DNA of 64,000 nt from Bacillota bacterium (GCA_029961055.1 JASBVM010000048.1:5600-69599), one strand, 5' to 3'. Counted from the first letter of the stretch, positions 4,806 through 46,971 are shown. Notes: a model not told the origin generated them from the sequence alone. A program made the numbers and translations.

Positions 4806-5498
4806 TTGACGGGCGGAGGGCGCGGTACCGCCGCCGGCGGAGGGACAGGCCGGCTGGAGCGGCTGCTGGGCGGGCAGCGGGTGATCGCCGCCGTGCGGAC
4901 GGCGCGCGAGTTCCAGCGCGCGCTGTCCGCGCCGCCGCGCCTCATCTTCCTCCTGGAGAGCCGGCTGGTGCAGCTCCCGGGCCTGGTCCGGGAGGCGCAC
5001 GGGGCGGGCAAGGCGCTCTTCGTCCATGGCGACCGCGTGGAGGGACTCAGCCCCGACGAGGCAGGGGTCGACTTCCTGGCCACCAGCGTGGTCCCCGACG
5101 GGCTCATCTCCACCCACCCGGCGGTCATCGCCGCCGCCCGGGCGCGGAGGCTGCAGGCCGTCCAGCGGGTCTTCGCCCTGGACAGCGCCGGCTTGGCCTC
5201 CGCCCGGCGGTTGGCGGCACAGGGAGAGGCGGACGCGGTGGAGATCCTGCCGGGTCTGCTTCCTCGCGTGGTCGCGCGCTTCGCGCGGGAGATGGGGCGG
5301 CCGGTCATCACCGGCGGTTTGCTGGAGAGCCGCGAGGACGTGGAGGCGGCGCTGGCGGCCGGGGCTCGTGCCGTCTCCGCCAGCTCGGAGGCGATCTGGC
5401 AACTGGCGGACGAAATGGAGAAAGAGCGTTTCGGTCACCGGGAGGAGTCGGCCGTGGAGGGACGAATAGAGGGTCTCACAACCAGTTCCGATTCGTGA
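4806..5498 (+). CDS. glpP: Glycerol-uptake operon antiterminator (G3P-responsive RNA-binding regulator GlpP).
   Basis: KALFVHGDRVEGLSPDEAGVDFLA and the overall sequence are collinear with B. subtilis GlpP (PF04309). TTG start 12 nt after the ilvD stop, preceded by a [13 protein letters not shown]. Confidence 0.75.
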   Translation: MTGGGRGTAAGGGTGRLERLLGGQRVIAAVRTAREFQRALSAPPRLIFLLESRLVQLPGLVREAHGAGKALFVHGDRVEGLSPDEAGVDFLATSVVPDGLISTHPAVIAAARARRLQAVQRVFALDSAGLASARRLAAQGEADAVEILPGLLPRVVARFAREMGRPVITGGLLESREDVEAALAAGARAVSASSEAIWQLADEMEKERFGHREESAVEGRIEGLTTSSDS

Positions 5499-5630
5499 TC
5501 GGAGCGACGGGCAGAGAGGGAGAGGTCCCGCCGCGCGTGCCTGGCATCGTCGGTGCCGGGCCGGGTGGCCGCGGGGCCTCTCTTCGTTACGTCCGCGCGA
5601 GAAGTCCCGCGATCCGGACCGGCAGGTGGG

Positions 5631-5666
5631 AGGGCCGCCAGGCGATGCGTGGCGGCCCTTTTCTGT
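5631..5666 (+). terminator. Leader terminator in the glpF 5' UTR, the probable GlpP antitermination target.
   Basis: GGGCCGCCA-ggcgatgcg-TGGCGGCCC followed by TTTTCTGTT, located between glpP and glpF. Confidence 0.65.
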
Positions 5667-5780
5667 TGGGCTTGGCGGGCATCGTGGCACACACCCAGTC
5701 CGCCCGGGGAGGGGGTGAGCGGCGAGGGGGCGGGTGGACCCGAGCCCGAGGCCAAAGACGCGGCATGCTCGTGGGAGGCG

Positions 5781-6500
5781 ATGATGCACGTGTCACCCTA
5801 CCTGGCCGAGTTCGTCGGTACGGCCATCCTGATCGTGCTGGGCGACGGCGTGGTAGCGAACGTCCTTCTGAATCGGTCGAAGGGACAGAACGGCGGCTGG
5901 ATGGTGATCACCACAGGGTGGGCCCTGGCCGTGGCGATCGCCGTCTACGCGGTCGGCTGGATCAGCGGCGCGCACATCAACCCTGCCGTCACCGTGGCCC
6001 TGGCCGCCATCGGCAGGTTCCCCTGGTCGGAGGTGCCGGGCTACATCGTGGCGCAGGTGCTCGGCGCCTTTGCGGGCGCGGTCCTCGTCTGGCTCGCCTA
6101 CCTGCCGCACTGGGGTGAGACGGCCGATCCCGACCTGAAGCTGGCGGTCTTCTCCACCATGCCCGCCGTGCGCAACTACCCCCTCAACTTCCTGACCGAG
6201 GTGATCGGCACGGCCGTGCTCGTCCTGGGCGTCCTGTTCATCCCCGACCGGCACAACGCCATCGGGGGCGGCCTGGTGCCGCTGCTGATCGGCGTCCTCG
6301 TATGGGCGATCGGCCTCTCGCTGGGCGGTCCCACCGGCTACGCCATCAACCCGGCCCGCGACTTCGGCCCGCGCCTGGCGCACGCCGTCCTTCCCATCCC
6401 GGGCAAGCGCGACTCGGACTGGGCCTACGCCTGGATACCGATCGTGGCCCCCCTGGTGGGCGGCGTCCTGGGCGCGCTGCTCTTCCATGCCATCTGGTGA
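5781..6500 (+). CDS. glpF: Glycerol uptake facilitator (aquaglyceroporin).
   Basis: Two NPA boxes ([16 protein letters not shown]) and a MIP-family TM pattern. ATG 5781/5784 after GGGAGG. Confidence 0.88.
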
Positions 6501-6504
6501 GGTG

Positions 6505-8007
6505 ATGTCGATGTCAGGCAAGTACGTCCTGGCGCTGGACCAGGGAACCACCAGCTCGCGCGCCATCGTCTTCGACCCCGACGGCCGCGTGGTGGGCATG
6601 AGTCAGAAGGAGTTCCGCCAGATCTTCCCCCAGCCCGGCTGGGTGGAGCACGACCCCGAGGAGATCTGGCAGAGCCAGCTGGAGACCGCCCAGGAAGCGT
6701 TGCGGAAGGCGCTGATCGAGCCCTCGGACCTGGCGGCCATCGGGATCACCAACCAGCGCGAGACCACCATCCTCTGGGACCGCGGCACCGGCAAGCCGGT
6801 GACGAACGCCATCGTCTGGCAGGACCGGCGGACGGCGCCCATCTGCGACCGGCTGCGGGAGGAGGGTCGGACCGAGTGGTTCCGCGAGAAGACCGGCCTG
6901 GTGGTCGACGCCTACTTCTCCGGCACCAAGGTGCAGTGGATCCTGGACCACGTGCCGGGTGCCCGCGAGCGGGCGGAACGGGGCGAGCTGGCCTTCGGCA
7001 CCGTCGACAGCTGGCTCATCTGGAAGCTGACCGGAGGAAGGGTGCACGCGACCGACTACTCCAACGCCTCCCGCACCCTCCTCTACAACATCCGCGAGCT
7101 CCGCTGGGACGAGGAGATCCTGCGCGAGCTGCGCATCCCGGCCTCGCTCCTCCCGGAGGTGAAGCCCTCCAGCGGTCGCTTCGGCGAGACGGACCCGGGC
7201 CTCCTCGGCGCCGCCATCCCCATCACCGGGGTCGCCGGTGACCAGCAGGCGGCCCTCTTCGGGCAGGGCTGCTACGAGCCGGGCATGGCCAAGAACACGT
7301 ACGGCACCGGCTCCTTCGTGCTGCTCAACACCGGCGAGCAGCCCGTCCCCTCGGCCCACGGGCTGGTGACCACCATCGCCTGGGGACTCGGCGGCCGGGT
7401 GGTCTACGCTCTGGAGGGGAGCATCTTCGTCACCGGTGCGGCCGTCCAGTGGCTCCGCGACCAGCTGGGCATCGTCCGGACCGCGGCCGAGACCGAGGAG
7501 CTGGCCAGGTCGGTGGAGGACACCGGCGGCGTCTACCTGGTCCCGGCCTTCGTCGGCCTGGGTGCGCCGTACTGGGACGCCTACGCCCGCGGGACGTTGA
7601 TCGGCGTCACCCGGGGTACCGGGCGCGCCGAGATCGCTCGCGCCACGCTCGAGTCCATCGCCTACCAGAGCCGCGACGTGCTCCAGGCGATGGTGGAGGA
7701 TGCGCGCCAGCCGCTGAAGAGCCTGCGCGTGGACGGCGGCGCGTCGATGAACAACTTCCTGATGCAGTTCCAGGCCGACATCCTGGACGTGCCCATCCTG
7801 CGGCCGGTGATCGCCGAGACCACCGCCCTGGGGGCCGCCTACCTGGCAGGACTGGCGGCGGGCGTCTGGGAAGACGTGGACGAGCTGGCGGCGAAGTGGC
7901 AGGTGGACCGCCGCTTCGAGCCCTCCATGCCCGAGGAGCGCCGGCAGGCGCTGCTGGAGGGCTGGCGGCGAGCGGTGGAGCGGGCCCGGGGGTGGGCGAG
8001 CGCCTAG
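6505..8007 (+). CDS. glpK: Glycerol kinase.
   Basis: [19 protein letters not shown]...[11 protein letters not shown]...; alternative start 6511. Confidence 0.92.
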
Positions 8008-8078: not shown

Positions 8079-10205
8079 GTGAAGGGACGCTCGGAGGGGG
8101 AGCCGGTGGTGGTGATCGGCGCCGGCTCCACCGGCGCGGCGCTGGCCTACGACCTGGCGCTGCGCGGGCTGCCGGTGCTGGTGCTGGAGCGGGGCGAGCC
8201 CGGCTCCGGCACCACCGGCCGGAACCACGCCCTGCTCCACTCCGGCGCCCGGTACGTGGTCAGCGACCCGGAGTCGGCCCGGGAGTGCGCCGTCGAGAAC
8301 CGCATCCTGCGCAGGATCGCGCCGGAGGTGGTGGAGCGGAACGGCGGCCTCTTCATCGCCCTGGACGAGGAGGATCTGGCCTACCGGCCGCGCTTCCTGG
8401 AGGCGGCGGAGGCGGCGGGTGTCCCGGCGCGGGAGATCACGCCCGAGCAGGCGCTGGCGCTGGAGCCCGAGCTCAACCCCGGGCTGAAGGCGGCGGTCCA
8501 GGTCGAGGACGCGGCGATGGACCCCTACCGGCTGGTCCTGGCCTGGCTGGCCAGCGCCGAGGCCTACGGCGCGGTGGTGCGGCCCTACTCGGAGGTGACC
8601 GGGGTCCGGGTGGAAGCCGGCCGCGTGCGGGGGCTGGAGGTTCACGACCTCCGCTCCGGGCGGCTCTACTTCCAGCCTGCAGCCCTGGTGGTCAACGCGG
8701 CCGGGCCCTGGGCCGGGCGGGTCGCGGCGCTGGCCGGCGTCCGCGTTCCCGTCGTGCCCAGCCCGGGGGTGATGGTGGCCACCGCCGTCCGGCTCAACCG
8801 GCGGGTGGTCAACCGCCTCCGCCGTCCGGGGGACGGCGACATCATCGTCCCCCAGCGGCAGGCGTCGCTGATCGGGACCACTTCCTGGACGGTGGAGGAG
8901 CCGGACCTGCTGGAGGTGCCACCCGAGCACGTGGCGCTGCTGATCGAGCAGGGAGCGCAGCTGATCCCCGCCGTCCGGGGCGCCCCCCTGCGCGCCGCCT
9001 TCGTGGCGGCGCGGCCGCTGGTGGCCGGCAACGTGGAGGAGAGCGGGCGGGAGATCTCGCGGACCTTCCAGACGTTCGACCACGAGAGCCGGGACGGCGT
9101 GCGCGGGCTGATCACCATCGCCGGCGGCAAGACCACCACCTCGCGGGCCATGGCCGAGGCGGCGGCCGACCTGGTCTGCCGGAGGCTGGGGTTCGAGGCG
9201 CCCTGCCGGACGGCGGAGCTGCCGCTCCGGAGCTACCGCCTCTACCGGCCGGCGCCGCCCGTGGAGTCGGGGAGGAGCCACCGGCCGGAGGGGCGACCCG
9301 GTCCGGGGGTGCGGCCCCGCAGCGCCGCGGCTCTGGCGGGCCCGCTCCCGGCACCGGCGTCCCGGGGGGCCCGCCCCTATCCGGTCCGCCTCCGCCTGCG
9401 GCGGAGCCCCCGCCTGGGCGGCGGGGGCGGCGAGGGCGAGAAGGGCGACGAGGGGAGAGCCCGGTTCGAGGAGGTGAGCGTGGAGGACGCATCGGGGGAG
9501 ACGCTCCTCGACCTTCTGGAGCGGCTCCGCTTCGGTCCCGTGCCGGACCTGGTCTACCGGGCGTCCTGCCATCACGCCAACTGCGGCAGCTGCGCGGTGG
9601 AGGCGAACGGCGTGGAACGGCTCGCCTGCGTCGCCCGGGTGGAGGACCTGGTGCCGCCGGGAGGACTTCTGACGCTGGAGCCGCTCGGCTCCCTGCCCTG
9701 GGTCGCCGACCTGGTGGCCGACCTGAGCCCCCTCCGGGCGCGGCTGGCGGGGTTGGAGGCGCCCCCCAAGGCCGTCCTGGAGGGGCCCGGGGGCGGCGAC
9801 GCAGGGGAGCCGGGGGGCGAACGCTTCCCGGACTGCATCGAGTGCGGCGCCTGCCTGGCAGCCTGCCCGGTGGTGGCGAGCGATCCGGCGTACCTGGGGC
9901 CGGCTCCGCTGGCGGCCGCCCTGCGCGCGGTCGGCCAGGCGGCGACCCCCGCGGAGGCGGCCGCGCGGCTGGCGGCCGTGGACGGTCCCGAAGGCGTCTG
10001 GCGCTGTCACCAGGCCTTCGAGTGCAGCGAGGTCTGCCCCGCCCACGTCGACCCGGCGGGGGCGATCCTGGCGCTCCGGCGTCTCTCGGCGCGGCGGCAC
10101 CTGGGCCTGGGCGCCCGCCTGGAGCCGCGGGCGCCGGAGCCGCTTCTGGCGGAGGAGGGCGGCCGGGGCGGGGGCGGCCCGGCAGAGAGGAGGTCCCGCC
10201 CGTGA
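8079..10205 (+). CDS. glpA: Glycerol-3-phosphate dehydrogenase (GlpA-type FAD subunit) fused in frame to a complete SdhB/FrdB-like iron-sulfur domain.
   Basis: The N-terminal ~400 aa are collinear with E. coli GlpA (VVVIGAGSTGAALAYDLALRG, TGRNHALLHSGARY, GDIIVP, SLIGTTS, GGKTTTSR). A ~70-aa G/P/R-rich linker follows. The C-terminal ~245 aa carry CHHANCGSCAVEANGVERLAC (2Fe-2S), CIECGACLAACP (4Fe-4S) and CHQAFECSEVCP (3Fe-4S), and there is no in-frame stop between the parts. The start is uncertain (GTG 8079, or GTG 8106/8109 after GGAGGGGGAG); the 7449 ORF start overlaps glpK and was rejected. Confidence 0.75.
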   Translation: MKGRSEGEPVVVIGAGSTGAALAYDLALRGLPVLVLERGEPGSGTTGRNHALLHSGARYVVSDPESARECAVENRILRRIAPEVVERNGGLFIALDEEDLAYRPRFLEAAEAAGVPAREITPEQALALEPELNPGLKAAVQVEDAAMDPYRLVLAWLASAEAYGAVVRPYSEVTGVRVEAGRVRGLEVHDLRSGRLYFQPAALVVNAAGPWAGRVAALAGVRVPVVPSPGVMVATAVRLNRRVVNRLRRPGDGDIIVPQRQASLIGTTSWTVEEPDLLEVPPEHVALLIEQGAQLIPAVRGAPLRAAFVAARPLVAGNVEESGREISRTFQTFDHESRDGVRGLITIAGGKTTTSRAMAEAAADLVCRRLGFEAPCRTAELPLRSYRLYRPAPPVESGRSHRPEGRPGPGVRPRSAAALAGPLPAPASRGARPYPVRLRLRRSPRLGGGGGEGEKGDEGRARFEEVSVEDASGETLLDLLERLRFGPVPDLVYRASCHHANCGSCAVEANGVERLACVARVEDLVPPGGLLTLEPLGSLPWVADLVADLSPLRARLAGLEAPPKAVLEGPGGGDAGEPGGERFPDCIECGACLAACPVVASDPAYLGPAPLAAALRAVGQAATPAEAAARLAAVDGPEGVWRCHQAFECSEVCPAHVDPAGAILALRRLSARRHLGLGARLEPRAPEPLLAEEGGRGGGGPAERRSRP

Positions 10206-10597
10206 GCGCGCGGGAGTGGCGGCGCTGGTTCGCTCCCCGGCGGCGGGCGCTGGGCAGCTGGGCCTTCGCCCTCAACCGCTTCAGCGGCCTTCTCCTGGCC
10301 GCCTACCTGCTGGTCCACCTCGGCGTCCTCAGCCTCCTCCGCCGGCAGAGCGACAGCTACGACGCCTTCGTCCACGCCGTCAGCTCACCGCCGGCCCTGG
10401 TGGCCGACCTCCTGCTGGTGGCGGTCGCCCTGGGGCATGGGCTCAACGGCGTGCGGCTGATCGCCCTGGGGCTCGGCGCCCGGCCCGAGCGGCAGAAGCT
10501 CTGGTTCTGGGGGCTGATGGCGGTGGGCGTCCTTCTCTTCGCCTACGCGGGCTACCGCATGCTGGGGCCGGTCATGGCGGCGGGGGTGAGCGGATGA
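10202..10597 (+). CDS. SdhC-like membrane anchor subunit (cytochrome b type, ~131 aa, 3 TM) of the GlpA-FeS complex.
   Basis: GTG 10202 overlaps the glpA stop (GTGA) after a GGCAGAGAGGAGG RBS. RFSGLLLAAYLLVHL... are hydrophobic helices with conserved His. Confidence 0.6.
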   Translation: MSAREWRRWFAPRRRALGSWAFALNRFSGLLLAAYLLVHLGVLSLLRRQSDSYDAFVHAVSSPPALVADLLLVAVALGHGLNGVRLIALGLGARPERQKLWFWGLMAVGVLLFAYAGYRMLGPVMAAGVSG

Positions 10598-10941
10598 ACC
10601 ACTCGTACTCCGCATGGGGTTGGATTCTGCAGGCCGTCTCGGGAGCGCTGCTCCTCTTCTTCCTGGGGGAGCACATCGTCATCAACCACTTCTCCGGGCT
10701 GCTCACCCGGGCGGAGGTGATCGGCCACCTGCGCAACCCCTGGTGGTGGGTGGTGGAGAGCGGCTTCCTGGTGACGGTCACCTTCCACGCGCTGGCGGGC
10801 ATCCGGGCCGTCCTCTTCGACCTGGGTCTCGACGCCGGCTGGCGACGGCGGGTGACGCTGGGAGCATGGCTGTTGGGCGCGCTGATGGTGGGCTACGGGC
10901 TCTGGCTGACCTGGGGCCTGGTGGCGCAGGGCGGCGCCTGA
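10594..10941 (+). CDS. SdhD-like second membrane anchor subunit (~115 aa, 3 TM).
   Basis: ATG 10594 overlaps the previous stop (ATGA). MNHSYSAWGWILQAVSGALLLFF...TFHALAGIRAVLFDLG. Confidence 0.55.
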   Translation: MNHSYSAWGWILQAVSGALLLFFLGEHIVINHFSGLLTRAEVIGHLRNPWWWVVESGFLVTVTFHALAGIRAVLFDLGLDAGWRRRVTLGAWLLGALMVGYGLWLTWGLVAQGGA

Positions 10942-11014
10942 ACACCGGTGGACCGCCCGCGCCGGCGGTCGGCCGCGGGCGCCGCCAGGCGCGATGAAAG
11001 GGAGGGTGGCAGGG

Positions 11015-12010
11015 ATGAAGAAGCTGATCAACCGGGTCGAAGACGTGGTCGACGAGATGCTGGACGGCTTCGCGGCCGCCCACGCGGACCGGGTCCGGCG
11101 GCTGGAGGGGACGCAGGTGATCGTCCGCGCCGACGCCCCGGTCCGGGGGAAGGTGGCGCTGGTCTCGGGCGGCGGCTCCGGCCACGAACCGGCTCACGCC
11201 GGCTACGTGGGCGAGGGCATGCTGGATGCGGCGGTGGCCGGGGCGGTCTTCACGTCGCCCACCCCGGACCAGGTGCTCGCGGCCATCCGGGCGGTGGACG
11301 GCGGCGCCGGCGTCCTCCTGATCATCAAGAACTACACCGGCGACGTGATGAACTTCGAGATGGCGGCGGAGATGGCGCGGGCCGAGGGCATCCGGGTCGA
11401 GCAGGTGGTGGTGGCGGACGACGTGGCGGTGGAGAACTCCACCTTCACCACGGGGCGCCGTGGCATCGCCGGCACCGTCCTGGTCCACAAGATCGCCGGC
11501 GCGGCGGCCGCGGCGGGGAGGAGCCTGGACGAGGTGAAGGCGGTCGCGGAGAAGGTGATCGCCAGCGTGCGCAGCATGGGCATGGCGCTCTCGCCCTGCA
11601 CCGTGCCCGCCGCCGGCAAGCCCACCTTCGAGCTGGCCGAGGACGAGGTGGAGATCGGGATCGGCATCCACGGCGAGCCCGGGGTCCGGCGCGAGGCGCT
11701 CCGGCCGGCACGGGAGATCGTGGCCGAGCTCGCCGCCAAGGTGCTGGACGACCTGCCCTTCCAGCGGGGCGACCGGGTGGTGGCGCTGCTCAACGGCATG
11801 GGAGCCACGCCGCTGAGCGAGCTGTACGTGGCCTACCACGAGCTGCGGGCGGTGCTCCGGGAGCGGGGCGTGGAGGCGGCGCACAGCCTGGTGGGCGAGT
11901 TCATGACCTCGCTCGAGATGGCCGGCTTCTCGGTGACGTTGCTCAGGCTGGACGACGAGCTGGAGCGCTACTTCCTGGCGCCGAGCCAGGCGGTCGCCTT
12001 CCGGCGCTGA
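11015..12010 (+). CDS. dhaK: Dihydroxyacetone kinase, DhaK (DHA-binding) subunit.
   Basis: MKKLINRVEDVVDEMLDG...SGGGSGHEP...; RBS GAAAGGGAGGGTG. Confidence 0.9.
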   Translation: MKKLINRVEDVVDEMLDGFAAAHADRVRRLEGTQVIVRADAPVRGKVALVSGGGSGHEPAHAGYVGEGMLDAAVAGAVFTSPTPDQVLAAIRAVDGGAGVLLIIKNYTGDVMNFEMAAEMARAEGIRVEQVVVADDVAVENSTFTTGRRGIAGTVLVHKIAGAAAAAGRSLDEVKAVAEKVIASVRSMGMALSPCTVPAAGKPTFELAEDEVEIGIGIHGEPGVRREALRPAREIVAELAAKVLDDLPFQRGDRVVALLNGMGATPLSELYVAYHELRAVLRERGVEAAHSLVGEFMTSLEMAGFSVTLLRLDDELERYFLAPSQAVAFRR

Positions 12011-12165: not shown

Positions 12166-12846
12166 ATGGCGGAGGAGATGGACCTGGAGCTGGCTCGCGC
12201 CGCGATCCGCGCCATGGCGGCGGCCATCCGCGAACATGCGCAGGAGCTGACCGACCTGGACGCGGCGATCGGCGACGCCGACCACGGAACCAACATGGAC
12301 CGCGGCTTCCAGGCGGCCTTGGCGCGGCTGGACGGCGGCCAGGGAGACCTGGGCGGTCTCCTGCGGGACGTGGCCATGGCGCTGATCTCCACCGTGGGTG
12401 GCGCGTCGGGACCGCTGTACGGGACCGCCTTCCTGCGCGCCTCGACCCCCCTGGCCGGGCGGTCGGCGGTCTCGGCGGCAGAGGTGGAGAAGGCCCTCGC
12501 CGCCGCCGTCGAGGGGGTGCGTGAGCGGGGCGGTGCCGCGCCCGGGGAGAAGACCATGGTCGACGCGCTGGTGCCGGCCCTGGAACGCTTCCACGCCGCG
12601 GTGGAGCAGGGCGCCGGCCTCGCCCGGGCGCTCGCGGCGGCGGCGGAGGGCGCCTGGCAGGGGGCGAGGCAGACCGTCGACCTGGTGGCGACCAAGGGGC
12701 GCGCCTCCTACCTGGGCGAGCGGTCGCGGGGTCATCAGGACCCGGGCGCCACCTCCTCGGCGCTCCTCCTGCAGGCGGCGGCACGGGCGCTGGCGGGCGA
12801 GGGGGAGCGGCGGGCGGCCGGCGGTCCGGGCGGGGGCGCCGGCTGA
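12166..12846 (+). CDS. dhaL: Dihydroxyacetone kinase, DhaL (ADP-binding) subunit.
   Basis: MAEEMDLELARAAIRAM...DADHGTNM... Confidence 0.85.
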   Translation: MAEEMDLELARAAIRAMAAAIREHAQELTDLDAAIGDADHGTNMDRGFQAALARLDGGQGDLGGLLRDVAMALISTVGGASGPLYGTAFLRASTPLAGRSAVSAAEVEKALAAAVEGVRERGGAAPGEKTMVDALVPALERFHAAVEQGAGLARALAAAAEGAWQGARQTVDLVATKGRASYLGERSRGHQDPGATSSALLLQAAARALAGEGERRAAGGPGGGAG

Positions 12847-13238
12847 TGGTGGGGCTGGTGCTGGTCTCGCACAGCCGGCGGCTGGCCGAGGGGCTCGAGG
12901 AGCTCCTCCGCCCGCTGGCGGGCGACGTGCCGCTGGTGCCGGCGGGGGGCACCTCGGACGGCCGCCTGGGCAGCGACGCCACGCGGGTCGCGGAGGCTTG
13001 CCGCCAGGCGGACCGGGGCGACGGCGTCCTCGTCCTGGGGGACATCGGCAGCTCCATCCTCAGCTCGAAGCTGGCGCTGGAGCTCCTGGCCGCCTCCGAC
13101 CCGGCGATCCGGGTCCGCATCGCCGACGCGCCCCTGGTGGAGGGCGCGGTGGCGGCGGCGGTCCAGGCCAGCCTGGGCGACCCGCTGGAGGCGGTGGTGC
13201 GCGCCGCCGAGGAGGCGGGCCGTCAAGCCAAGCTGTGA
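12846..13238 (+). CDS. dhaM: Dihydroxyacetone kinase phosphotransferase subunit (PTS EIIA-like DhaM).
   Basis: MVGLVLVSHSRRLAEGLEELL...; the ATG overlaps the dhaL stop. Confidence 0.8.
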   Translation: MVGLVLVSHSRRLAEGLEELLRPLAGDVPLVPAGGTSDGRLGSDATRVAEACRQADRGDGVLVLGDIGSSILSSKLALELLAASDPAIRVRIADAPLVEGAVAAAVQASLGDPLEAVVRAAEEAGRQAKL

Positions 13239-14454: not shown

Positions 14455-14467
<13 letters not shown>

Positions 14468-16290
14468 GGCGGAGCCTCCAGCAGGGCCGGCTCCTCCACC
14501 AGCAGCTCCTGCTCCAGCTCCCACATGCGCCGGTAGAGGCCGCGCCGGGCGAGAAGCTGCCGGTGGCGCCCGCGCTCCACCACCCGCCCGCGATGGAGGA
14601 CCACGATCTCGTCCATCGCCTCCAGGCCGGCCAGACGGTGGGTGACCAGGAGGAGGCTCCGCTCCCCCAGGTGGGCCAGGAGCGCCTCCATCAGCCGCTG
14701 CTCGGTCAGCGCGTCCAGGCCGCCGGCGGGTTCGTCCAGGAGGAGGATCGGAGCCGGCCGCAGGAGCGCCCGCGCCACCGCCACCCGCCGTCGCTCGCCG
14801 CCCGAGAGCCGGAGCCCGGCCTCGCCCACCTGCGTCGCCATACCCTCGGGAAGCCCGGCCCACCATTCCTCCAGCTGCGCCACCCGGAGCGCCCCGCGCA
14901 GCTCCGCTTCGCCCGCGCCCGGGCGGCCCAGGCGCAGGTTCTCGCCCAGGCTGGCGTGGAAGAGGTGGCTCTCCTGGGCCACCACGCTGAAGAAGGAGCG
15001 GACGAGCGCCGGCTCCATGCCGCGGGTGGGGCGGCCGTCCAGGAGGATCTCCCCCGCCTCGGGGTCGCGGAAGCGGACGAGCAGGTCGAGGAGCGTGCTC
15101 TTGCCCGATCCGCTGGGCCCCACCAGCGCCACCCGCGCGCCCGGCGCGAGCGAGAGGTCCAGGTCCGCGAGCGCCGGCCGCTCCGCGCCCGGGTAGGTGT
15201 AGCGGAGCCCCCGCACCTCCAGGCGGACCGGCCCGGCGGCCACCGGCTCGACCTGCTCGGCCGGCGCCGCGGAGGGCGACGCAGAGACCGGTCCTGAGGT
15301 CAGCGGCGGCAGGGGAGGCTCGGGCACCGGCGGGGGCGTCCGCTCCAGCTCCTCCAGCCGCCGGGAGGCCTGGACGCTCTCGCCCAGGCCCGCCAGGGCG
15401 GCGGGCAGCGGCATCACCGCCTCGAAGGCCGCCAGGGCGGCCAGCGCGACGGCGGCCACCTCGGGGCCGGGCAGGTGGCCCGCGCGGACCCGAGGCACGG
15501 CGAGCAGGAGGACCGCGGCCATGGCCAGGTTCTGGGAGAGACCGAGCAGCGCGCCGGTCAGCGCCTCGGCGCGGCGCAGCCCGCGCTGGTGCCGGATGAG
15601 GCGGGCGCTGGCGGCGGCCAGGCGGCGAGTCCATGCGCCTTCCTGGGAGAAGGCGACCAGTTCGGTCATCCCATGGACCGCGTCCACGCCCAGGGTGGTC
15701 AGCTCCGCCCGGGCGGCGGGCAGCGCCTCCGCCTCCTGCCGCGCCAGGCGGTGGGAGAGGGCGGGCAGCACCGCCCCCGCCAGCAGGTAGAAGAGGCTGA
15801 AGGCCAGGGCGAGGGCGAGCCCCCGCGGGGCCAGGATCGCCCAGCCCAGGAGGAGGGTGAGCGCCGCCACCGCCGGCGGGTAGAGCAGCCGCAGGAAGAG
15901 GTTCTGGAGCGTCTCCACGTCCTGGACCATGCGGCTGAGCAGATCGCCCCGGCGGATCCCGCCCAGCCCGGCGGGTGCCAGCGGCGCCAGCGCCCGGTAG
16001 AAGGTGACCCGCAGCTCGGCCAGGAGGCGGAAGGTGGCGTCGTGGGTGACCAGCCGCTCCAGGTAGCGGAAGACGCCCCGGGCGATGCCGAAGAAGCGGA
16101 CCCCCACGATGGGCACCCAGAGGAGCAGGATGGTGCTGGGGCGGAGGGCGGAGGCCGAGATCAGGTAGCCCGAGACGGCCAGCAGGCCGACGTTGGAGCC
16201 CACGGTGAGCAGGCCGAGCAGGAGCCCCAGCGAGACCCGCCGCCGGAGCGGCCGGAGGAAGCCGAGCCAGCGCCGCAGGACCCCGTCCAC
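14455..16290 (-). CDS. cydD: Thiol-reductant ABC exporter, permease/ATPase fusion (second cydDC-type subunit).
   Basis: N-terminal 6-TM domain plus an ABC ATPase (LSGGERRRVAVARALL, Walker A/B). Sits in the cydAB operon; the C/D naming is ambiguous. Confidence 0.8.
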
Positions 16291-16292
16291 CG

Positions 16293-18086: not shown

Positions 18087-18192
18087 GACCGGAGCCTCAC
18101 CTCGACGCGGGGGCCGGCCCCAGGGGGCCGGCCCCACCCTTGCTTCCTAATCTCCCACGTGCAGGCTCGCGAAGCCAGCCAGGCCGTCGCCC

Positions 18193-19206
18193 TCAGTAGA
18201 TCAGCCTCTCGCGGACGCCGATCCGCTTCCGGAAGATCCAGTAGGTCCAGGCCTGGTAGGCGAGGACGAAGGGGACCAGAGTGACCGCGACGATGGTCAT
18301 CACCTTCAGCGTGTACGGGCTGGAGGAGGCGTTGTAGACGGTCAGATTCCAGGCCGGGTTGAGGCTGGAGATCATCACGTTCGGGTAGAGCCCCAGGAAG
18401 ATGGTGGCCACCGCGGCGACGATCATCACGCCGTTGAGCACGAAGGCCCAGCCGTCGCGGCCGCGGTCGAGCATCGGCCGCACCGCCAGCAGCGCCAGGC
18501 CGCCGACCACCACCAGGAGACCCGGCAGGAAGCCCGGCTTCTGGAAGAGGTCCGTGGCGAAGTAGCTGTAGACCGCGAAGAGAGCGGCCACCACCGTGGT
18601 CACGGCGCCCACCCGGCGCGCGGTGCCCACCGCCCGGTCGCGGAGCTCGCCCTCGGTCTTCAGCGCCAGGAAGAGCGCCCCGTGCAGGGTGAAGGCGAGC
18701 ACGGCGAAGAGGCCGCCCAGGATGCCGTAGGGACCGAGCAGCGTCCAGAGCGTCCCCGTGTAGTTCATCTTGGCGTCGATGGGCACGCCGTGCACCAGGT
18801 TGGCCAGCGCCACGCCCCAGAGGAGCGCTGGCAGGAGGCTGCCGACAAAGATCAGCCAATCCCAGGTGTTCCGCCAGCGCCGGCTCCCGTCGCGGCTCCG
18901 GTACTCGAAGCCGACGCCGCGGACGATGAGGGCGAGGAGCATCAGGACCAGCGCCAGGTAGAAGCCGCTGAACATGGTCGCGTACCAGTTGGGGAAGGCC
19001 GCGAACATCGCCCCGCCGGCGGTGATGAGCCAGACTTCGTTGCCGTCCCAGTGGGGGCCCACGGTGTTGAGCAGCACCCGACGCTCCTGGTCCGAGCGAC
19101 CGAGCCAGGGAAGCAGGATGCCCACGCCGTAGTCGAAGCCCTCCAGGAAGAAGTAGCCCACGAAGAGCACGACGATCAGCGCGAACCAGACCGTGTTCAG
19201 ATCCAT
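18193..19206 (-). CDS. cydB: Cytochrome bd ubiquinol/menaquinol oxidase subunit II.
   Basis: MDLNTVWFALIVVLFVGYFFLEGFDYGVGILLPWLG... Confidence 0.9.
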   Translation of the reverse strand: MDLNTVWFALIVVLFVGYFFLEGFDYGVGILLPWLGRSDQERRVLLNTVGPHWDGNEVWLITAGGAMFAAFPNWYATMFSGFYLALVLMLLALIVRGVGFEYRSRDGSRRWRNTWDWLIFVGSLLPALLWGVALANLVHGVPIDAKMNYTGTLWTLLGPYGILGGLFAVLAFTLHGALFLALKTEGELRDRAVGTARRVGAVTTVVAALFAVYSYFATDLFQKPGFLPGLLVVVGGLALLAVRPMLDRGRDGWAFVLNGVMIVAAVATIFLGLYPNVMISSLNPAWNLTVYNASSSPYTLKVMTIVAVTLVPFVLAYQAWTYWIFRKRIGVRERLIY

Positions 19207-19219
19207 TCGCCTTCCCTCC

Positions 19220-20614
19220 TCAGACGCCCACGCCCGGCTCGACGCCGACCACGGGGGCCGCCTCCGCTTCGGTGCTCTCCAGGCCGAGCCGGACGTACTT
19301 GAGCGTGAGGTAGACGTCGGCCGCGGCCATGACCGCGTAGAGCAAGGTGAAGAGGCCGAGGCTGAGCCCGACGTCCAGCGCGCTCACGGTCGGCGAGACC
19401 GCGTTGGCCGTCTTCAGGAGGCCGGTCACCACCCACGGCTGCCGGCCGATCTCGGTCATCAGCCAACCGGTGGTGTTGGCGATGTAGGGCAGCGCGATCG
19501 CCCAGACGAGCAGCCGCAGGAAGCCTCTCCGCGCGCCCAGGTCCCGCTTCCTCCACATCAGGACGGCGCCGTAGATGCCCAGGATGAGCATCAGCACGCC
19601 GGCCAGCACCATGATGCGGAAGCTCCAGAAGGTGACGCCGACGGGCGGCACGTAGTCCCCGGGACCGTAGCGGGCCACCGCCTGCTGCTGCAGCTCGGCG
19701 ATGCCCGGCACGCTGCCGGAGAGCCTGCCGTAGGCCAGGAGGCTGAGGGCGTACGGGATCTGGATCTCCAGGTAGTTGCGCTGGTTGGCGCTGTCGGGGA
19801 TGGCGAAGAGCGTCCACGGCGCCGGATCCGGGCTGGTCTTCCACAGCGCCTCCGAGGCCGCCATCTTCATCGGCTGGGCGCTGACCAGGTGGACCGCCTG
19901 GGCGTGGCCCATCACCACCACCAGAAGGCTGAAGACCGCCGCGAAGAGGACCCCCAGCCGGAGCGAGCGGACGAAGAGATCGGGATGGTGCCCGCGCAGG
20001 ATCTGGTAGGCGCTGATGCCGGCGACGAAGAAGCCGGCGGTGGCGTAGGCGCCGAAGATGACGTGCGGGAACTCCACCCAGAGCTGCGGGTTGCCCAGCA
20101 GGGCGAAGAAGTCGACCATCTCGGCCCGGCCGTGACGGAGGACGAAACCCACCGGCTCCTGCATGAAGGAGTTGGCGGTCAGGATCCAGAGGGCCGAGAG
20201 GGTGGTGCCCAGGGCCACGAGCCACATGGAGGCCGCGTGGAGCGACTTGGAGACCTTGTCCCACCCGAAGATCCAGAGTCCGAGGAAGGTGGACTCCATG
20301 AAGAAGGCGAGCAGCGCCTCCACGGCCAGGGGTGCCCCGAAGATGTCGCCCATGAAGCGGGAGTAGTCCGACCAGTTCATGCCGAACTGGAACTCCTGGA
20401 GGATGCCGGTGACGACGCCCAGCGCAAAGTTGACCAGGAAGAGCCTGCCGAAGAATTCCGCCAGCTTCCTGTACGCCATGTCGCCGCGACGCACGTAGAG
20501 CGTCTCCAGGATCGCCACGAGGACACTCAGGCCCATGGTCAGCGGCACAAACAGAAAGTGGTAGACGGTCGTGACGCCGAACTGCCATCGCGCAAGCAGA
20601 AGATTCAGATCCAT
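19220..20614 (-). CDS. cydA: Cytochrome bd ubiquinol/menaquinol oxidase subunit I.
   Basis: MDLNLLLARWQFGVTTVYHFLFVPLTMGLSVLVA... plus a Q-loop. Confidence 0.9.
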   Translation of the reverse strand: MDLNLLLARWQFGVTTVYHFLFVPLTMGLSVLVAILETLYVRRGDMAYRKLAEFFGRLFLVNFALGVVTGILQEFQFGMNWSDYSRFMGDIFGAPLAVEALLAFFMESTFLGLWIFGWDKVSKSLHAASMWLVALGTTLSALWILTANSFMQEPVGFVLRHGRAEMVDFFALLGNPQLWVEFPHVIFGAYATAGFFVAGISAYQILRGHHPDLFVRSLRLGVLFAAVFSLLVVVMGHAQAVHLVSAQPMKMAASEALWKTSPDPAPWTLFAIPDSANQRNYLEIQIPYALSLLAYGRLSGSVPGIAELQQQAVARYGPGDYVPPVGVTFWSFRIMVLAGVLMLILGIYGAVLMWRKRDLGARRGFLRLLVWAIALPYIANTTGWLMTEIGRQPWVVTGLLKTANAVSPTVSALDVGLSLGLFTLLYAVMAAADVYLTLKYVRLGLESTEAEAAPVVGVEPGVGV

Positions 20615-43808: not shown

Positions 43809-44573
43809 TCAGGCGCTCTTCGACTTGCTGGCGAGCCAGCGCGTGAAGCCGCGGGCGATGGTCTGCCGGTTGGCCTCGGCGATGGCGGTGGTGAGCGGGA
43901 TCCCCTTGGGGCAGGCGCGGACGCAGTTCTGCGCGTTGCCGCAGTCCTCGACGCCGCCGGGCTCCATCAGCGCGTCCAGCCGCTCGTCCGCGTTGTAGCG
44001 TCCGGTGGGATGGGCGTTGAAGAGGACCACCTGCGCGATGGGCTGCGCGCCGATGAAGCGCGACTGGGGCCCGTAGTTGGGGCAGACCTCCAGGCAGACG
44101 CCGCAGGTCATGCAGCGCGAGAGCTCGTAGCGCCACTGCTGCTCCTGGTCGGAGATGCGCGGTCCGGGTCCCAGCGGGTAGGTGCCGTCGAGCGGGATCC
44201 AGGCCTTCACCTTCTTCAGGTTCTCGAACATGCGCGAGCGGTCGACGATCAGGTCGCGCACCACCGGGAAGGAGTGCATCGGCTCCAGGGTGATGGGCTC
44301 TTCGACCTTGTCCACCAGCGTGGAGCAGGCCTGGCGGGCGCGGCCGTTGATCACCATGCTGCAGGCGCCGCAGACCTCCTCCAGGCAGCTGGACTCCCAG
44401 GCGACCGGCGTCGTCGGCTGCCCGGCGGCGTTGACCGGGTTCCGCTGGATCGCCATCAGCGCGCTGATCACGTTCATCCCCGGCTCGTAGGGGACCTCGA
44501 AGTCCTCCCAGCGGGGCGTCGCCTCGGGGTTCTCCTGCCGCCGGATCCGCAGCTTGACACTCTCTCGGGCCAC
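43809..44573 (-). CDS. sdhB: Succinate dehydrogenase iron-sulfur subunit.
   Basis: CLEEVCGACSMVINGRARQAC, CMTCGVCLEVCP, CGNAQNCVRACP. Confidence 0.9.
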   Translation of the reverse strand: MARESVKLRIRRQENPEATPRWEDFEVPYEPGMNVISALMAIQRNPVNAAGQPTTPVAWESSCLEEVCGACSMVINGRARQACSTLVDKVEEPITLEPMHSFPVVRDLIVDRSRMFENLKKVKAWIPLDGTYPLGPGPRISDQEQQWRYELSRCMTCGVCLEVCPNYGPQSRFIGAQPIAQVVLFNAHPTGRYNADERLDALMEPGGVEDCGNAQNCVRACPKGIPLTTAIAEANRQTIARGFTRWLASKSKSA

Positions 44574-44604
44574 AGGCTCTCTCCCCCTCCGATTCCGAGC
44601 GGTC

Positions 44605-46344
44605 TCAGTCGTACTTGCGCGGGCGCGGCGGGATGAGCGAGGTGTCCACCGGCTCGTAGCTGAACTTCGGCCCGTCGGGCGTGAAGGTGACGATGGTCGT
44701 CTTCAGCCAGTGCTCGTCGTCCCGCTCGGGGAACTCGGGCTTGTAGTGGGCGCCCCGGCTCTCGTTCCGGTTGAGCGCGCCCAGGGTGATCGCCCGCGCC
44801 AGCTGGAGCATGTGGTAGAGGTGGGCGGTGAACTGCACCGACTGGTTGGTCCAGCGCCCGGCGTCGGGGGTGCCGATCCGCTGCCAGCGCTCCAGCAGCT
44901 CCTGGATCTTGGCGTCGGTCTCGCGGAGCCGGTCGTTGTAGCGGACCACCGTCACGTTGTCCGTCATGATCTGGCCCAGCTCCTGGTGGATGCGGTACGG
45001 GTTCTCCGTGCCGTCCATCCGGTAGATCCGCTCGTACCACTCCTCCGCGCGCTTCCTCTCCGCCTCGAAGAGGCTCTCGGGCAGGTCCCAGGCGTCCCGG
45101 TCCAGCCCCTCGACGTGCTTCTGGATGGTGGGCACCACCGCCATCCCGTCGTAGATGCAGGAGAGCAGCGAGTTGGCGCCCAGCCGGTTGGCGCCGTGGT
45201 GCTGGTACTCCGCCTCACCGGCGCCGAAGATGCCGGGCACCGACGCCTGCATGCCGTAGTCGACCCAGAGGCCGCCCATGTTGTAATGGACCGTGGGGAA
45301 GACCTTCATGGGCACCTTGCGCGGGTCGTCGCCCACGAACTTCTCGTAGATCTCCAGCACGCCGCCCAGCTTCCGCTCCAGCACGTCCGCGGGGATGTGG
45401 GTGACGTCCAGGTAGACCATGTTCTTGCCGTCGATGCCCAGGTGCTGGTTGACGCAGACGTCGAAGATCTCCCGCGTGGCGATGTCCCGCGGCACCAGGT
45501 TGCCGTAGTGCGGGTACTTCTCCTCCAGGAAGTACCAGGGCTTCCCGTCCTTGTAGACCCAGACCCGGCCGCCCTCGCCGCGGATCGACTCCGACATCAG
45601 GCGGTTCTTGTCCCCGCCTGGGATGGCCGTGGGATGGACCTGGATGAACTCGGGGTTGGCGTACTTCAGCCCCTGCTGATAGAGGATGCTGAGCGGCGCC
45701 CCGTCGTTGATGATGGAGTTGGTGCTCTTGCCGAAGATGACGCCCAGCCCGCCGGTGGCGATCACCACCGCGTTGGCGCGGAAGGCCCGGATCTCCATGG
45801 AGTGGAGATCCTGGGCGATGATGCCGCGGCCGATCCCCTGGTCGTCGATCACCGCCCCCAGGAAGTCCCACATCTCATACTTGGTGACGGCCCCCTCGAC
45901 CTCCCAGCGCCGGACCTGCTCGTCCAGGGCGTACATCAGCTGCTGGCCGGTGGTGGCGCCGGCGAAGGCGGTGCGGTGGAACTGGGTGCCGCCGAAGCGC
46001 CGGAAGTCGATCAGCCCCTCGGGCGTCCGGTTGAAGGGCACTCCCATGCGGTCGAACATGTAGATGATGTCGGGCGCCGCCTGGCACATGCCCAGCACCG
46101 GTGGCTGGTTGGCCAGGAAGTCGCCGCCGTAGACCGTGTCGTCGAAGTGCTGCCAGGGCGAGTCCCCCTCGCCCTTGGTGTTGACGGCCCCGTTGATGCC
46201 CCCCTGGGCGCAGACCGAGTGCGAGCGCTTGACCGGCACCAGCGAGAAGAGGTCGACATGGAAGCCCGCCTCGGCCGCGCGGATGGTGGTCATGAGCCCC
46301 GCCAGCCCGCCGCCGACGACGATGATCCGGTTCTGCTTCGCCAA
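44605..46344 (-). CDS. sdhA: Succinate dehydrogenase flavoprotein subunit.
   Basis: IIVVGGGLAGLM...HSVCAQGGINGA...RSHSV (covalent FAD His). Confidence 0.92.
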   Translation of the reverse strand: MAKQNRIIVVGGGLAGLMTTIRAAEAGFHVDLFSLVPVKRSHSVCAQGGINGAVNTKGEGDSPWQHFDDTVYGGDFLANQPPVLGMCQAAPDIIYMFDRMGVPFNRTPEGLIDFRRFGGTQFHRTAFAGATTGQQLMYALDEQVRRWEVEGAVTKYEMWDFLGAVIDDQGIGRGIIAQDLHSMEIRAFRANAVVIATGGLGVIFGKSTNSIINDGAPLSILYQQGLKYANPEFIQVHPTAIPGGDKNRLMSESIRGEGGRVWVYKDGKPWYFLEEKYPHYGNLVPRDIATREIFDVCVNQHLGIDGKNMVYLDVTHIPADVLERKLGGVLEIYEKFVGDDPRKVPMKVFPTVHYNMGGLWVDYGMQASVPGIFGAGEAEYQHHGANRLGANSLLSCIYDGMAVVPTIQKHVEGLDRDAWDLPESLFEAERKRAEEWYERIYRMDGTENPYRIHQELGQIMTDNVTVVRYNDRLRETDAKIQELLERWQRIGTPDAGRWTNQSVQFTAHLYHMLQLARAITLGALNRNESRGAHYKPEFPERDDEHWLKTTIVTFTPDGPKFSYEPVDTSLIPPRPRKYD

Positions 46345-46371
46345 GATCGTTGCCCCCTTTGCCCACGCCGC

Positions 46372-46971
46372 TTACGCCACGAAGGCGATGGCCGAACCCA
46401 CGCCGAGGACGCTGAGCGCCACGAAGAAGACGGCCAGCACCCACTGGGCCACCCGTTGCGCCCGCGGGCTGATCAGGATCCCCCAGTTGATCCCGAAGAG
46501 CCAGAGACCGTTGGACAGGTGCCAGGTGGCGGAGAGGATGCCGAGGATGTAGAAGGCCAGACCCCAGGGGCTGGACAGCTCGCCGGCCACCTTGGCGAAG
46601 CTGGCGCTGGGCCCGACGAAGCGTATCGTGAGCACGTGGTAGACGATGAAGACGAAAACAATCACGCCCGTGGCGCGCTGAAGCAGAAAGAACCAATTGC
46701 GCGCGAACGGGTAACGATTCACGTTGTACCGGGCGTCCCGCATGACGACGAATCCGTAAACGGCATGATAAAGAATCGGAAGATAAATGAGGAGAGTCTC
46801 GACCACGATGAGCGCCGGAAGGCTTTCCAGGAGGCGGACGACTTGGTTATAGGCGGCAGGCCCGGCAAAGGCGGCCGAATTGGCCCAGAGGTGGAAGATC
46901 AGAAAGACGCCGACGGGGACGACACCGCTCAGCGAATGCAGTCGGCTCCAGAAAAAGTGGCTGACGCGCAA
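46372..46971 (-). CDS. sdhC: Succinate dehydrogenase cytochrome b558 subunit (Bacillus-type single 5-TM anchor).
   Basis: TTG start (MRVSHFFWSRLHSLSGVVPVGVFLIFHL...) after an AAGGGAGAGAGG RBS; collinear with B. subtilis SdhC. The rest of the 1060-aa track ORF was rejected. Confidence 0.8.
   Translation of the reverse strand: MRVSHFFWSRLHSLSGVVPVGVFLIFHLWANSAAFAGPAAYNQVVRLLESLPALIVVETLLIYLPILYHAVYGFVVMRDARYNVNRYPFARNWFFLLQRATGVIVFVFIVYHVLTIRFVGPSASFAKVAGELSSPWGLAFYILGILSATWHLSNGLWLFGINWGILISPRAQRVAQWVLAVFFVALSVLGVGSAIAFVA

Follow-up and report, generated by a model that had tools for sequence, protein, structure and literature searches.

Glycerol-3-phosphate dehydrogenases coupled to the membrane are known in several arrangements. 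In Escherichia coli GlpABC, the catalytic flavoprotein GlpA feeds its own BFD-type [2Fe-2S] domain and then GlpB and GlpC, the latter a CCG-domain iron–sulfur (Fe–S) protein. By comparison, in the aerobic, monotopic GlpD and in GlpA–CoxG of Sulfolobus acidocaldarius, the flavin adenine dinucleotide (FAD) reduces the quinone directly, without Fe–S clusters or haem, and the contact is monotopic or made via CoxG. A further arrangement was drawn from gene order by Schmerling et al. (2025, Commun Biol 8:539; PMC11962113, Fig. 9b), namely a GlpA–SdhBCD complex in Thermofilum pendens and the Thermofilales, and according to the same paper, glpA in Bacteria is consistently found together with glpB and glpC. 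Our literature searches found no bacterial description of the GlpA–SdhBCD type and no biochemical work on it. Here, we analysed a 64-kb stretch of one contig of a Bacillota metagenome-assembled genome (MAG), hereafter the window (+ and − strands as in the stretch), and found that three genes at 8079..10941 probably encode a membrane-bound respiratory sn-glycerol-3-phosphate (G3P):menaquinone oxidoreductase with the build of complex II, in which a GlpA head replaces the flavoprotein SdhA. This assignment is based on the domain composition, the conservation of cofactor ligands and of the operon, the linkage to glpK, and the independence from a canonical succinate dehydrogenase (SDH), each of which is directly observed. 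What is new is a fused bacterial variant of a recently noted enzyme type; the archaeal gene-order proposal was known before.

Our comparison reveals both likenesses and differences with respect to each of these systems. As in Thermofilum, glpA is followed by sdhB-, sdhC- and sdhD-like genes (here sdhB’, sdhC’ and sdhD’) in place of glpB and glpC, a likeness of gene order, and the presumed role of these genes is likewise Fe–S relay and membrane anchoring. Unlike the archaeal system, which has separate genes, the system in the window is bacterial, and GlpA and SdhB’ form one polypeptide; no archaeal GlpA-linked locus was found among its best 80 relatives. The same catalytic flavoprotein, the presumed G3P-to-menaquinone reaction and a [2Fe-2S] cluster as the first centre after FAD are shared with E. 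coli GlpABC, whereas the BFD tail, GlpB and GlpC are replaced by a three-cluster SdhB-type domain and two predicted haem-binding integral anchors. With GlpD and the Sulfolobus enzyme, the locus has in common a DAO-fold, putatively G3P-oxidising flavoprotein that feeds a membrane quinone, and the Sulfolobus GlpA is, as here, truncated and without glpB and glpC; unlike both, the system in the window has a full Fe–S wire and predicted transmembrane haem anchors. The type-A dihaem SDH of Mycobacterium smegmatis, Sdh2 (6LUM; PMC7447783), resembles it in its three-cluster SdhB and in its two three-helix anchors with two histidines each for haems bP and bD. By comparison, the flavoprotein of Sdh2 is SdhA (FAD_binding_2 and Succ_DH_flav_C) rather than DAO-fold GlpA, and the substrate couple proposed here has a far lower potential, so that menaquinone reduction would be exergonic.

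Architecture of the fusion protein and its membrane anchors

The three genes comprise the following parts.

8079..9263, + strand: GlpA-type FAD catalytic domain, residues 1–395 (DAO, TIGR03377, identity to E. coli GlpA)
9264..9398, + strand: G/P/R-rich linker of ~45 residues, residues ~396–440 (alignment with unfused and fused relatives)
9399..10205, + strand: SdhB/FrdB-type iron–sulfur domain, residues ~441–708 (Fer2_3, Fer4_8, TIGR00384)
10202..10597, + strand: SdhC-like anchor, 131 amino acids, three transmembrane (TM) helices (Sdh_cyt 1e-12; 6lum_C 3.3e-9; predicted haem ligands His39 and His79)
10594..10941, + strand: SdhD-like anchor, 115 amino acids, three TM helices (Sdh_cyt 5.8e-10; 6lum_C 1.9e-8; predicted haem ligands His27 and His65)

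A first-pass annotation of the window had described a single protein of ~708 residues after glpF–glpK, in which ~400 residues of GlpA type run through a stop-free G/P/R-rich linker into a complete SdhB/FrdB-type domain in place of the BFD-like tail, followed by two small three-helix anchors resembling SdhC and SdhD; our analysis bears out this description throughout. Translation of 8079..10205 (+) yields an uninterrupted open reading frame (ORF) of 708 codons with no internal stop. The corresponding protein record, MDI3317913.1, is named ‘FAD-dependent oxidoreductase’, and the NCBI product is 737 amino acids long with a start upstream of 8079, while homologues favour the start at 8079. Three Pfam domains are found along the chain: DAO at residues 10–364 (5.6e-52), Fer2_3 at residues 457–551 (3.4e-19) and Fer4_8 at residues 585–657 (6.4e-10).

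The catalytic domain carries GAGSTG at residues 14–19, the N-terminal GxGxxG motif of the DAO-fold FAD domain, and is 46% identical to residues 6–386 of E. coli GlpA over the whole domain (tblastn). The NCBIfam GlpA equivalog TIGR03377 matches the fusion with 1.2e-137, at model positions 2–377 of 530 only. Its whole-protein score of 459.6 bits falls below the curated cutoff of 552.8 bits because the BFD domain is missing, leaving the last ~150 model positions unmatched. Consistent with this, collinearity with E. coli GlpA ends at a conserved C-x8-C helix (CRRLGFEAPC) at about residue 386, after which the E. coli protein enters its BFD-type cluster domain; the alignment shows no counterpart of this domain in the fusion, no Pfam match to Fer2_BFD was found there, and the SdhB-type domain stands at its place. 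The scores of the GlpD-type models, 88 and 80 bits, lie far below their cutoffs (360 and 352), and the C-terminus is formed by the SdhB-type domain and not by a GlpD-type C-terminal helical domain. In an AlphaFold2 (AF2) model of the fusion, the predicted local distance difference test (pLDDT) score of the catalytic domain is mostly above 90. A Foldseek search against the PDB matched only this N-terminal domain (GlpD, GlpO and glycine oxidase; query TM-score (TMq) ≤0.48) and found no solved structure that spans both the GlpA and SdhB-type domains.

The SdhB-type domain passes the SdhB/FrdB (dhsB) model TIGR00384 with 131.6 bits against a cutoff of 88, and the fusion shares 28% identity with residues 19–237 of E. 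coli SdhB (tblastn). Its closest PDB chains are E. coli FrdB (1kf6_B, 2.4e-28) and M. smegmatis Sdh2 (6lum_B, 1e-26). The cluster motifs CHHANCGSC...C, CIECGACLAACP and CHQAFECSEVCP are located at residues 497, 586 and 643, respectively, and all 11 cysteine ligands of the [2Fe-2S], [4Fe-4S] and [3Fe-4S] clusters are conserved without exception in an alignment whose members include E. coli SdhB and the SdhB encoded elsewhere in the window. The domain departs from SdhB and FrdB in its partner, which is GlpA and not SdhA or FrdA, being fused here and adjacent in 77 of 80 related loci; SdhA occurs only at the outgroup locus L087 and in the separate sdhCAB of the window. Two G/E-rich insertions, absent or shorter in relatives, are present in this domain: one in the first hairpin of the 2Fe-2S domain (window 9417–9464, residues 447–458) and one between the ferredoxin halves (window 9756–9842, residues 560–588), both disordered in the AF2 model.

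The first-pass annotation had also considered that the C-terminal domain and the anchors might align better with GlpC or heterodisulfide reductase-type proteins. This identity was rejected: the match to GlpC is confined to a 25-residue ferredoxin motif, no CCG-domain match was found, and the SdhB/FrdB models and PDB chains dominate, while the anchors match SdhC and SdhD. When E. coli GlpB and GlpC were used as tblastn queries, no homologue of either was found in the 64-kb window, the ferredoxin-motif stretch being the only match to GlpC.

The genes of the two anchors are tightly packed behind the fusion gene. The SdhC-like start overlaps the stop codon of the fusion (GTGA), and the SdhD-like start overlaps the stop codon of the SdhC-like gene (ATGA). 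Each anchor has three hydrophobic segments in the hydropathy profile and passes Pfam Sdh_cyt (48.7 and 39.8 bits; cutoff 25.8), and both miss the NCBIfam equivalog cutoff of 52.3 (47.5 and 34.3). Among solved structures, they are closest to chains C and D of M. smegmatis Sdh2, in which the haem ligands are His D107 and His C87 for bP, and His D65 and His C47 for bD (PMC7447783). In an ungapped alignment, H39 and H79 of SdhC’ fall on C47 and C87 of 6LUM, and H27 and H65 of SdhD’ stand at the equivalent ligand positions. These four candidate haem histidines are invariant in 74 of 74 related loci, and the anchors are predicted to be of the dihaem, type-A kind, an assignment more precise than that of the first-pass annotation. 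Further invariant residues are R26 of SdhC’ (aligned with R31 of E. coli SdhC), and H32, a third such histidine, and D76 of SdhD’ (the latter aligned with D82 of E. coli SdhD), both again in 74 of 74 loci. At two positions, the SdhC’ of the window carries Q49 and L31 where 100% and 91% of the relatives, respectively, have glycine.

A widespread four-gene operon linked to glpK

A scan with an SdhB’ profile, taking one genome per species, identified at least 213 relatives, of which the best 80 were analysed in detail. These belong to Chloroflexota (60), Actinomycetota (15), Verrucomicrobiae (1), Gemmatimonadaceae (1) and Thermoplasmata (1), with two unclassified. A short glpA lies immediately upstream, followed by sdhB’, sdhC’ and sdhD’, in 77 of these 80 loci, and glpK precedes the short glpA in most loci with enough upstream sequence, in two phyla. 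The same arrangement is found in the contexts L001–L004 and L007–L009, and the fused actinobacterial genes precede the same two anchors. The four-gene operon is therefore widespread in Bacteria, beyond what the literature says.

The three exceptions among the best 80 are L087, L033 and L016. L087 is a true SDH with SdhA from a Thermoplasmata archaeon; L033 (3959–4630) is an orphan SdhB’-like gene between prs and efp, without GlpA or anchors; and L016 (3303–7029) is broken or rearranged, with DAO fragments flanking sdhB’–sdhC’ and an alcohol dehydrogenase gene in the place of sdhD’. In one Chloroflexi MAG (L078, 23–5477), glpB- and glpC-like genes lie directly upstream of the short glpA–sdhB’–sdhC’–sdhD’ operon, so that two types of G3P dehydrogenase can be neighbours.

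Fused relatives of the protein, found in a full-length search, number about 30, are 664–752 amino acids long and share 44–49% identity with it, or up to 58% over the GlpA part alone. They include proteins of Cellulomonas, Pengzhenrongella and Actinotalea, among them cultured Actinomycetota, and the fused actinobacterial proteins are again named ‘FAD-dependent oxidoreductase’ in the databases. Unfused GlpA relatives are many (~389–410 amino acids, 54–65% identity), with Symbiobacteriaceae, Chloroflexi and Limnocylindrales among the named sources. Cultured carriers include Cellulomonas sp. P24 and Pengzhenrongella phosphoraccumulans for the fused form, and Thermanaerothrix solaris and Anaerolinea thermophila for the unfused form. 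Among the 77 syntenic loci, only four are fused, every one from Actinomycetota, and an exhaustive phmmer search against 1.84 billion representatives returned no fused representative among its best 150, which yields no useful estimate of the fusion frequency. The same search also returned about ten proteins of 920–1000 amino acids with an N-terminal GlpA-like domain and further matched stretches (P0275, P0277, P0282, P0287, P0289, P0291, P0296, P0318, P0327 and P0355), which are presumably other GlpA fusions.

These data refine two claims of the first-pass annotation. The fusion, which it had treated as the defining feature, turns out to be a rare derived state, with dozens of such proteins of cultured Actinomycetota already in the databases. 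Its claim that the combination of domains and subunits is distinct holds with respect to GlpABC and GlpD, but the combination has precedents in the Thermofilum proposal (PMC11962113) and in the widespread unfused operon.

Is the fusion in the window genuine?

The fusion in the window is very probably genuine. In an alignment with unfused (L007, L008, L002 and L004) and fused (L001 and L009) relatives, the linker corresponds to the GlpA C-terminal tail, the former intergenic spacer and the SdhB’ N-terminus of the unfused loci. The alternative, that the fusion stems from an error in sequencing or assembly, or from an inactivating mutation of very recent date, and that the real organism has separate glpA and sdhB’ genes, is unlikely, although it deserves the most weight among those considered here. 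In its favour, the protein occurs once, in one MAG contig, and its nearest GlpA relatives (P0030, P0117 and P0031 at loci L007, L008 and L002) all lack the fusion and have sdhB’ in another frame. Neither a second database copy of the fusion product (exact-product look-up; its cluster has one member) nor an exact 39-nt linker match in JGI metagenomes was found, and a protein-guided scan of these metagenomes returned distant relatives only, with identity of at most 42%; this specific fusion is thus unreplicated. Moreover, one indel upstream of a stop codon could make such a fusion, and homopolymer runs of G and C occur in the linker. Within 9249–9380, the GC content is high at every codon position, so that an analysis of third-position GC content (GC3) is uninformative there and the coding frame of the linker cannot be read from its composition.

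Several observations argue against such an artefact. The fusion frame is stop-free throughout 9150..9700, and the linker itself is stop-free in every frame; the only out-of-frame stop nearby, in frame +1 at 9475, comes no sooner than 79 nt into the conserved SdhB’ domain, so that reversing a single indel would yield an overlap known from just five of the 73 unfused loci. In these five loci (L034, L053, L062, L066 and L074), the glpA frame extends 65–658 nt into sdhB’, which is in another frame; the junctions may be frameshifted fusions, assembly errors or unusual overlaps. On both sides of the linker GC3 is 0.90–1.00, with both domains in one frame. The length and composition of the linker resemble the tail plus spacer of the unfused L008 as well as the linkers of actinobacterial fusions from isolate genomes, and equivalent fusions exist in at least two other lineages. 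Even if the fusion were an artefact, the GlpA–SdhB’C’D’ complex would persist as four subunits, and the enzyme architecture is independent of whether the fusion is genuine.

The AF2 prediction for the fusion drew on 52 sequences and has a mean pLDDT of 78.8 and a predicted template modelling (pTM) score of 0.78, with both domains confident. Disorder is predicted for residues 398–429 in the linker (pLDDT <50), for the two insertions (447–458 and 560–588) and for the C-terminal tail. A pTM of 0.78 despite a disordered linker of 30 residues fits a defined docking of the two modelled domains, because such a value is hard to reach otherwise for a chain of 708 residues.

Recurrent fusion and origin of the B’C’D’ module

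In a neighbour-joining tree of GlpA domains with 100 bootstrap replicates, the window protein falls, with a bootstrap value of 90, within a clade of nine that otherwise consists of unfused proteins, and in 98 of 100 replicates its sister group is free of fused proteins. Fusions occur at three distinct places in the tree, namely the window protein alone, P0032 with P0036, and 29 actinobacterial proteins. This tree indicates that the GlpA–SdhB’ fusion arose at least three times and that the fusion in the window is independent of those in Actinobacteria. As judged from these phylogenies, fusion is a derived condition, rare yet repeatedly reached, of a system of four subunits, and its independent recurrence argues that the C-terminus of GlpA and the N-terminus of SdhB’ are physically adjacent.

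In 99 of 100 replicates, the SdhB’ proteins linked to GlpA form one clade to the exclusion of the Thermoplasmata SDH (L087), E. coli SdhB and the canonical SdhB of the window. Their nearest outgroup is L087, a true SDH with two such anchors. With thin outgroup sampling, the tree suggests that a type-A-like succinate dehydrogenase was the probable source of the B’C’D’ module, in a single recruitment.

Proposed mechanism and alternative functions

The scheme below, including the substrate, the direction of the reaction, the cofactor content, the type of quinone, the quinone site used and electrogenicity, is what we infer from the architecture and its context. Glycerol would enter through GlpF and be phosphorylated by GlpK, and G3P would be oxidised to dihydroxyacetone phosphate (DHAP) at the FAD of the N-terminal GlpA domain. 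Electrons would then pass from FAD to the [2Fe-2S] cluster of the covalently joined SdhB-type domain, whose [4Fe-4S] and then [3Fe-4S] clusters would pass them to the heterodimeric anchor formed by the two three-helix proteins. Like the type-A succinate:menaquinone reductases, this anchor would bind two b haems through four histidines, with bP (and bD) carrying the electrons. Menaquinone would be reduced in the membrane, and the quinol could be reoxidised, for example, by the cytochrome bd encoded in the same window. Menaquinone is proposed as the acceptor because of the general quinone content of Bacillota, Chloroflexota and Actinomycetota. The E°’ values are about −190 mV for DHAP/G3P and about −74 mV for menaquinone; the transfer from G3P to menaquinone would therefore be exergonic, unlike the oxidation of succinate by menaquinone.

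The first-pass annotation had read the locus as a G3P:menaquinone oxidoreductase, and the synteny with glpK in dozens of genomes strongly supports this predicted function. Several points weigh against it. For the whole family, we infer the substrate, the haem content and quinone reduction. The window’s fusion is known from one MAG contig, its nearest relatives (62–65% identity) are unfused, and the linker composition gives no clue to the frame. The absence of glpB and glpC claimed by the first-pass annotation holds for the 64-kb window and is not assertable for the genome, elsewhere in which the two genes could lie. The proximal quinone site of E. coli succinate:quinone reductase is partly kept: equivalents of its Arg, Asp and His are present, and those of Trp164, Ser27 and Tyr83 are not. 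Finally, a dihaem anchor that feeds a distal quinone site would dissipate proton-motive force even though the reaction is exergonic to begin with, which makes the strict conservation of the dihaem anchor puzzling.

It is very improbable that the substrate of the flavoprotein domain is not G3P but, for example, some other 2-hydroxy or amino compound of the kind that DAO-family enzymes handle, and that the complex is a different substrate:quinone oxidoreductase. Such a reading could draw on the missed cutoff of the GlpA equivalog and on the functional diversity of the DAO family, the structural neighbours including glycine oxidase, sarcosine oxidase and proline dehydrogenase. The score gap, however, is due to the missing BFD domain, and the catalytic part itself matches GlpA closely, as described above. 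In addition, the G3P-site residues R54, T270, R317, R332 and K354 of E. coli GlpD align with the conserved R58, T267, R312, R328 and K351 of the fusion, respectively. The position of glpK directly upstream in most loci also argues for G3P, and the cluster in the window adds glpP, glpF and dhaKLM.

That the SdhB-like domain and the anchors are merely a second, misassembled or degenerate SDH or fumarate reductase with glpA as a chance neighbour is hardly credible: annotation pipelines do name the unfused homologues SDH/fumarate reductase iron–sulfur subunit and TIGR00384 is passed, but 77 of 80 loci have GlpA and no SdhA or FrdA gene alongside, the clade is set apart from true SdhB (99/100), a complete sdhCAB is already present in the window, and translational coupling, with fusion in the present case, ties the genes to glpA.

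Implications of a probable G3P:menaquinone oxidoreductase with a complex II build

We slightly favour the broader view that SdhB–SdhC–SdhD is a portable chassis that was captured once by a DAO-fold flavoprotein, and that the resulting respiratory G3P:menaquinone oxidoreductases make up a large class, so far overlooked, in Chloroflexota, Actinomycetota and some Bacillota. If this view is correct, the three natural fusions would provide single-chain evidence for a flavoprotein/[2Fe-2S] interface without a solved structure, and the strictly conserved dihaem anchor, in a reaction that can proceed without any input of proton-motive force, would hint at a coupling mode or quinone site unlike those of GlpABC and classical complex II. 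It would also follow that the SdhB, SdhC and SdhD calls in many MAG metabolic reconstructions of these phyla are wrong. The unfused SdhB’ proteins are automatically named ‘succinate dehydrogenase / fumarate reductase iron-sulfur subunit’ (JGI) or ‘2Fe-2S iron-sulfur cluster-binding protein’ (NCBI), and the annotation of these partners as SDH or fumarate reductase can yield false calls of a tricarboxylic acid cycle or of fumarate respiration in Chloroflexota and Actinomycetota MAGs.

Biochemical confirmation would establish a complex II-type enzyme with a head other than SdhA or FrdA, and an Fe–S relay and haem anchor that are reusable for another substrate; until now, the idea of another head on complex II has come up solely from the gene order of a single archaeal group. 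Next to GlpD and GlpABC, Bacteria would have a third and widespread type of membrane G3P dehydrogenase, at odds with the claim that their glpA always occurs with glpB and glpC (PMC11962113). The natural single-chain GlpA–SdhB’ proteins of cultured Cellulomonas and relatives would be handy for expression and for EPR and cryo-EM work on the interface between FAD and the [2Fe-2S] cluster.

Genomic context of the fusion gene

The following features surround the three genes in the window.

4806..5498, + strand: glpP, glycerol-3-phosphate-responsive antiterminator (Pfam G3P_antiterm 1.3e-52)
5632..5667, + strand: terminator-like hairpin with a U-run in the glpF leader, a candidate target of GlpP antitermination (fold of 5495–5800, z = −3.3)
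5793..6500, + strand: glpF, glycerol facilitator (Pfam MIP 1.9e-49); its start is uncertain, as the ORF opens at 5553
6487..8007, + strand: glpK, glycerol kinase (Pfam FGGY_N 4.2e-82, FGGY_C 4.5e-49)
10994–12010, + strand: dhaK (Pfam Dak1 1.8e-138)
12166–12846, + strand: dhaL (Pfam Dak2 2.4e-54)
12846–13238, + strand: dhaM (Pfam EIIA-man 2.8e-26)
18193..20614, − strand: cydAB, cytochrome bd quinol oxidase (Cyt_bd_oxida_I 5.5e-172, Cyt_bd_oxida_II 2e-115)
43809..46971, − strand: canonical sdhCAB, encoding SdhC (199 amino acids, single anchor), SdhA (579 amino acids) and SdhB (254 amino acids) (Pfam, tblastn)

The leader between glpP and glpF (5495–5800) is strongly structured and contains a GC-rich stem-loop at 5632–5667 followed by UUUUCUGUU. 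By analogy with the glp operons of Bacillus subtilis, this hairpin looks like a terminator/antiterminator controlled by GlpP; Rfam, promoter and terminator scans of the cluster returned nothing besides it. The genes of a phosphotransferase system (PTS)-dependent dihydroxyacetone kinase, dhaKLM, lie directly after the anchors, and both glycerol routes to DHAP are thus clustered at this locus.

The canonical sdhCAB noted in the first-pass annotation is present at the coordinates listed above. Pfam identifies Sdh_cyt (in two stretches), FAD_binding_2 with Succ_DH_flav_C, and Fer2_3 with Fer4_8 in its products, and tblastn with E. coli SdhA and SdhB also finds it. The organism therefore has its own succinate dehydrogenase and, with cydAB, its own quinol oxidase, and the anchors and SdhB-type domain at 8079..10941 are not needed for succinate oxidation. 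Cytochrome bd is a plausible acceptor of the quinol formed by the G3P enzyme. A cydDC-like ABC transporter gene pair adjoins cydAB (14455–20614, −).

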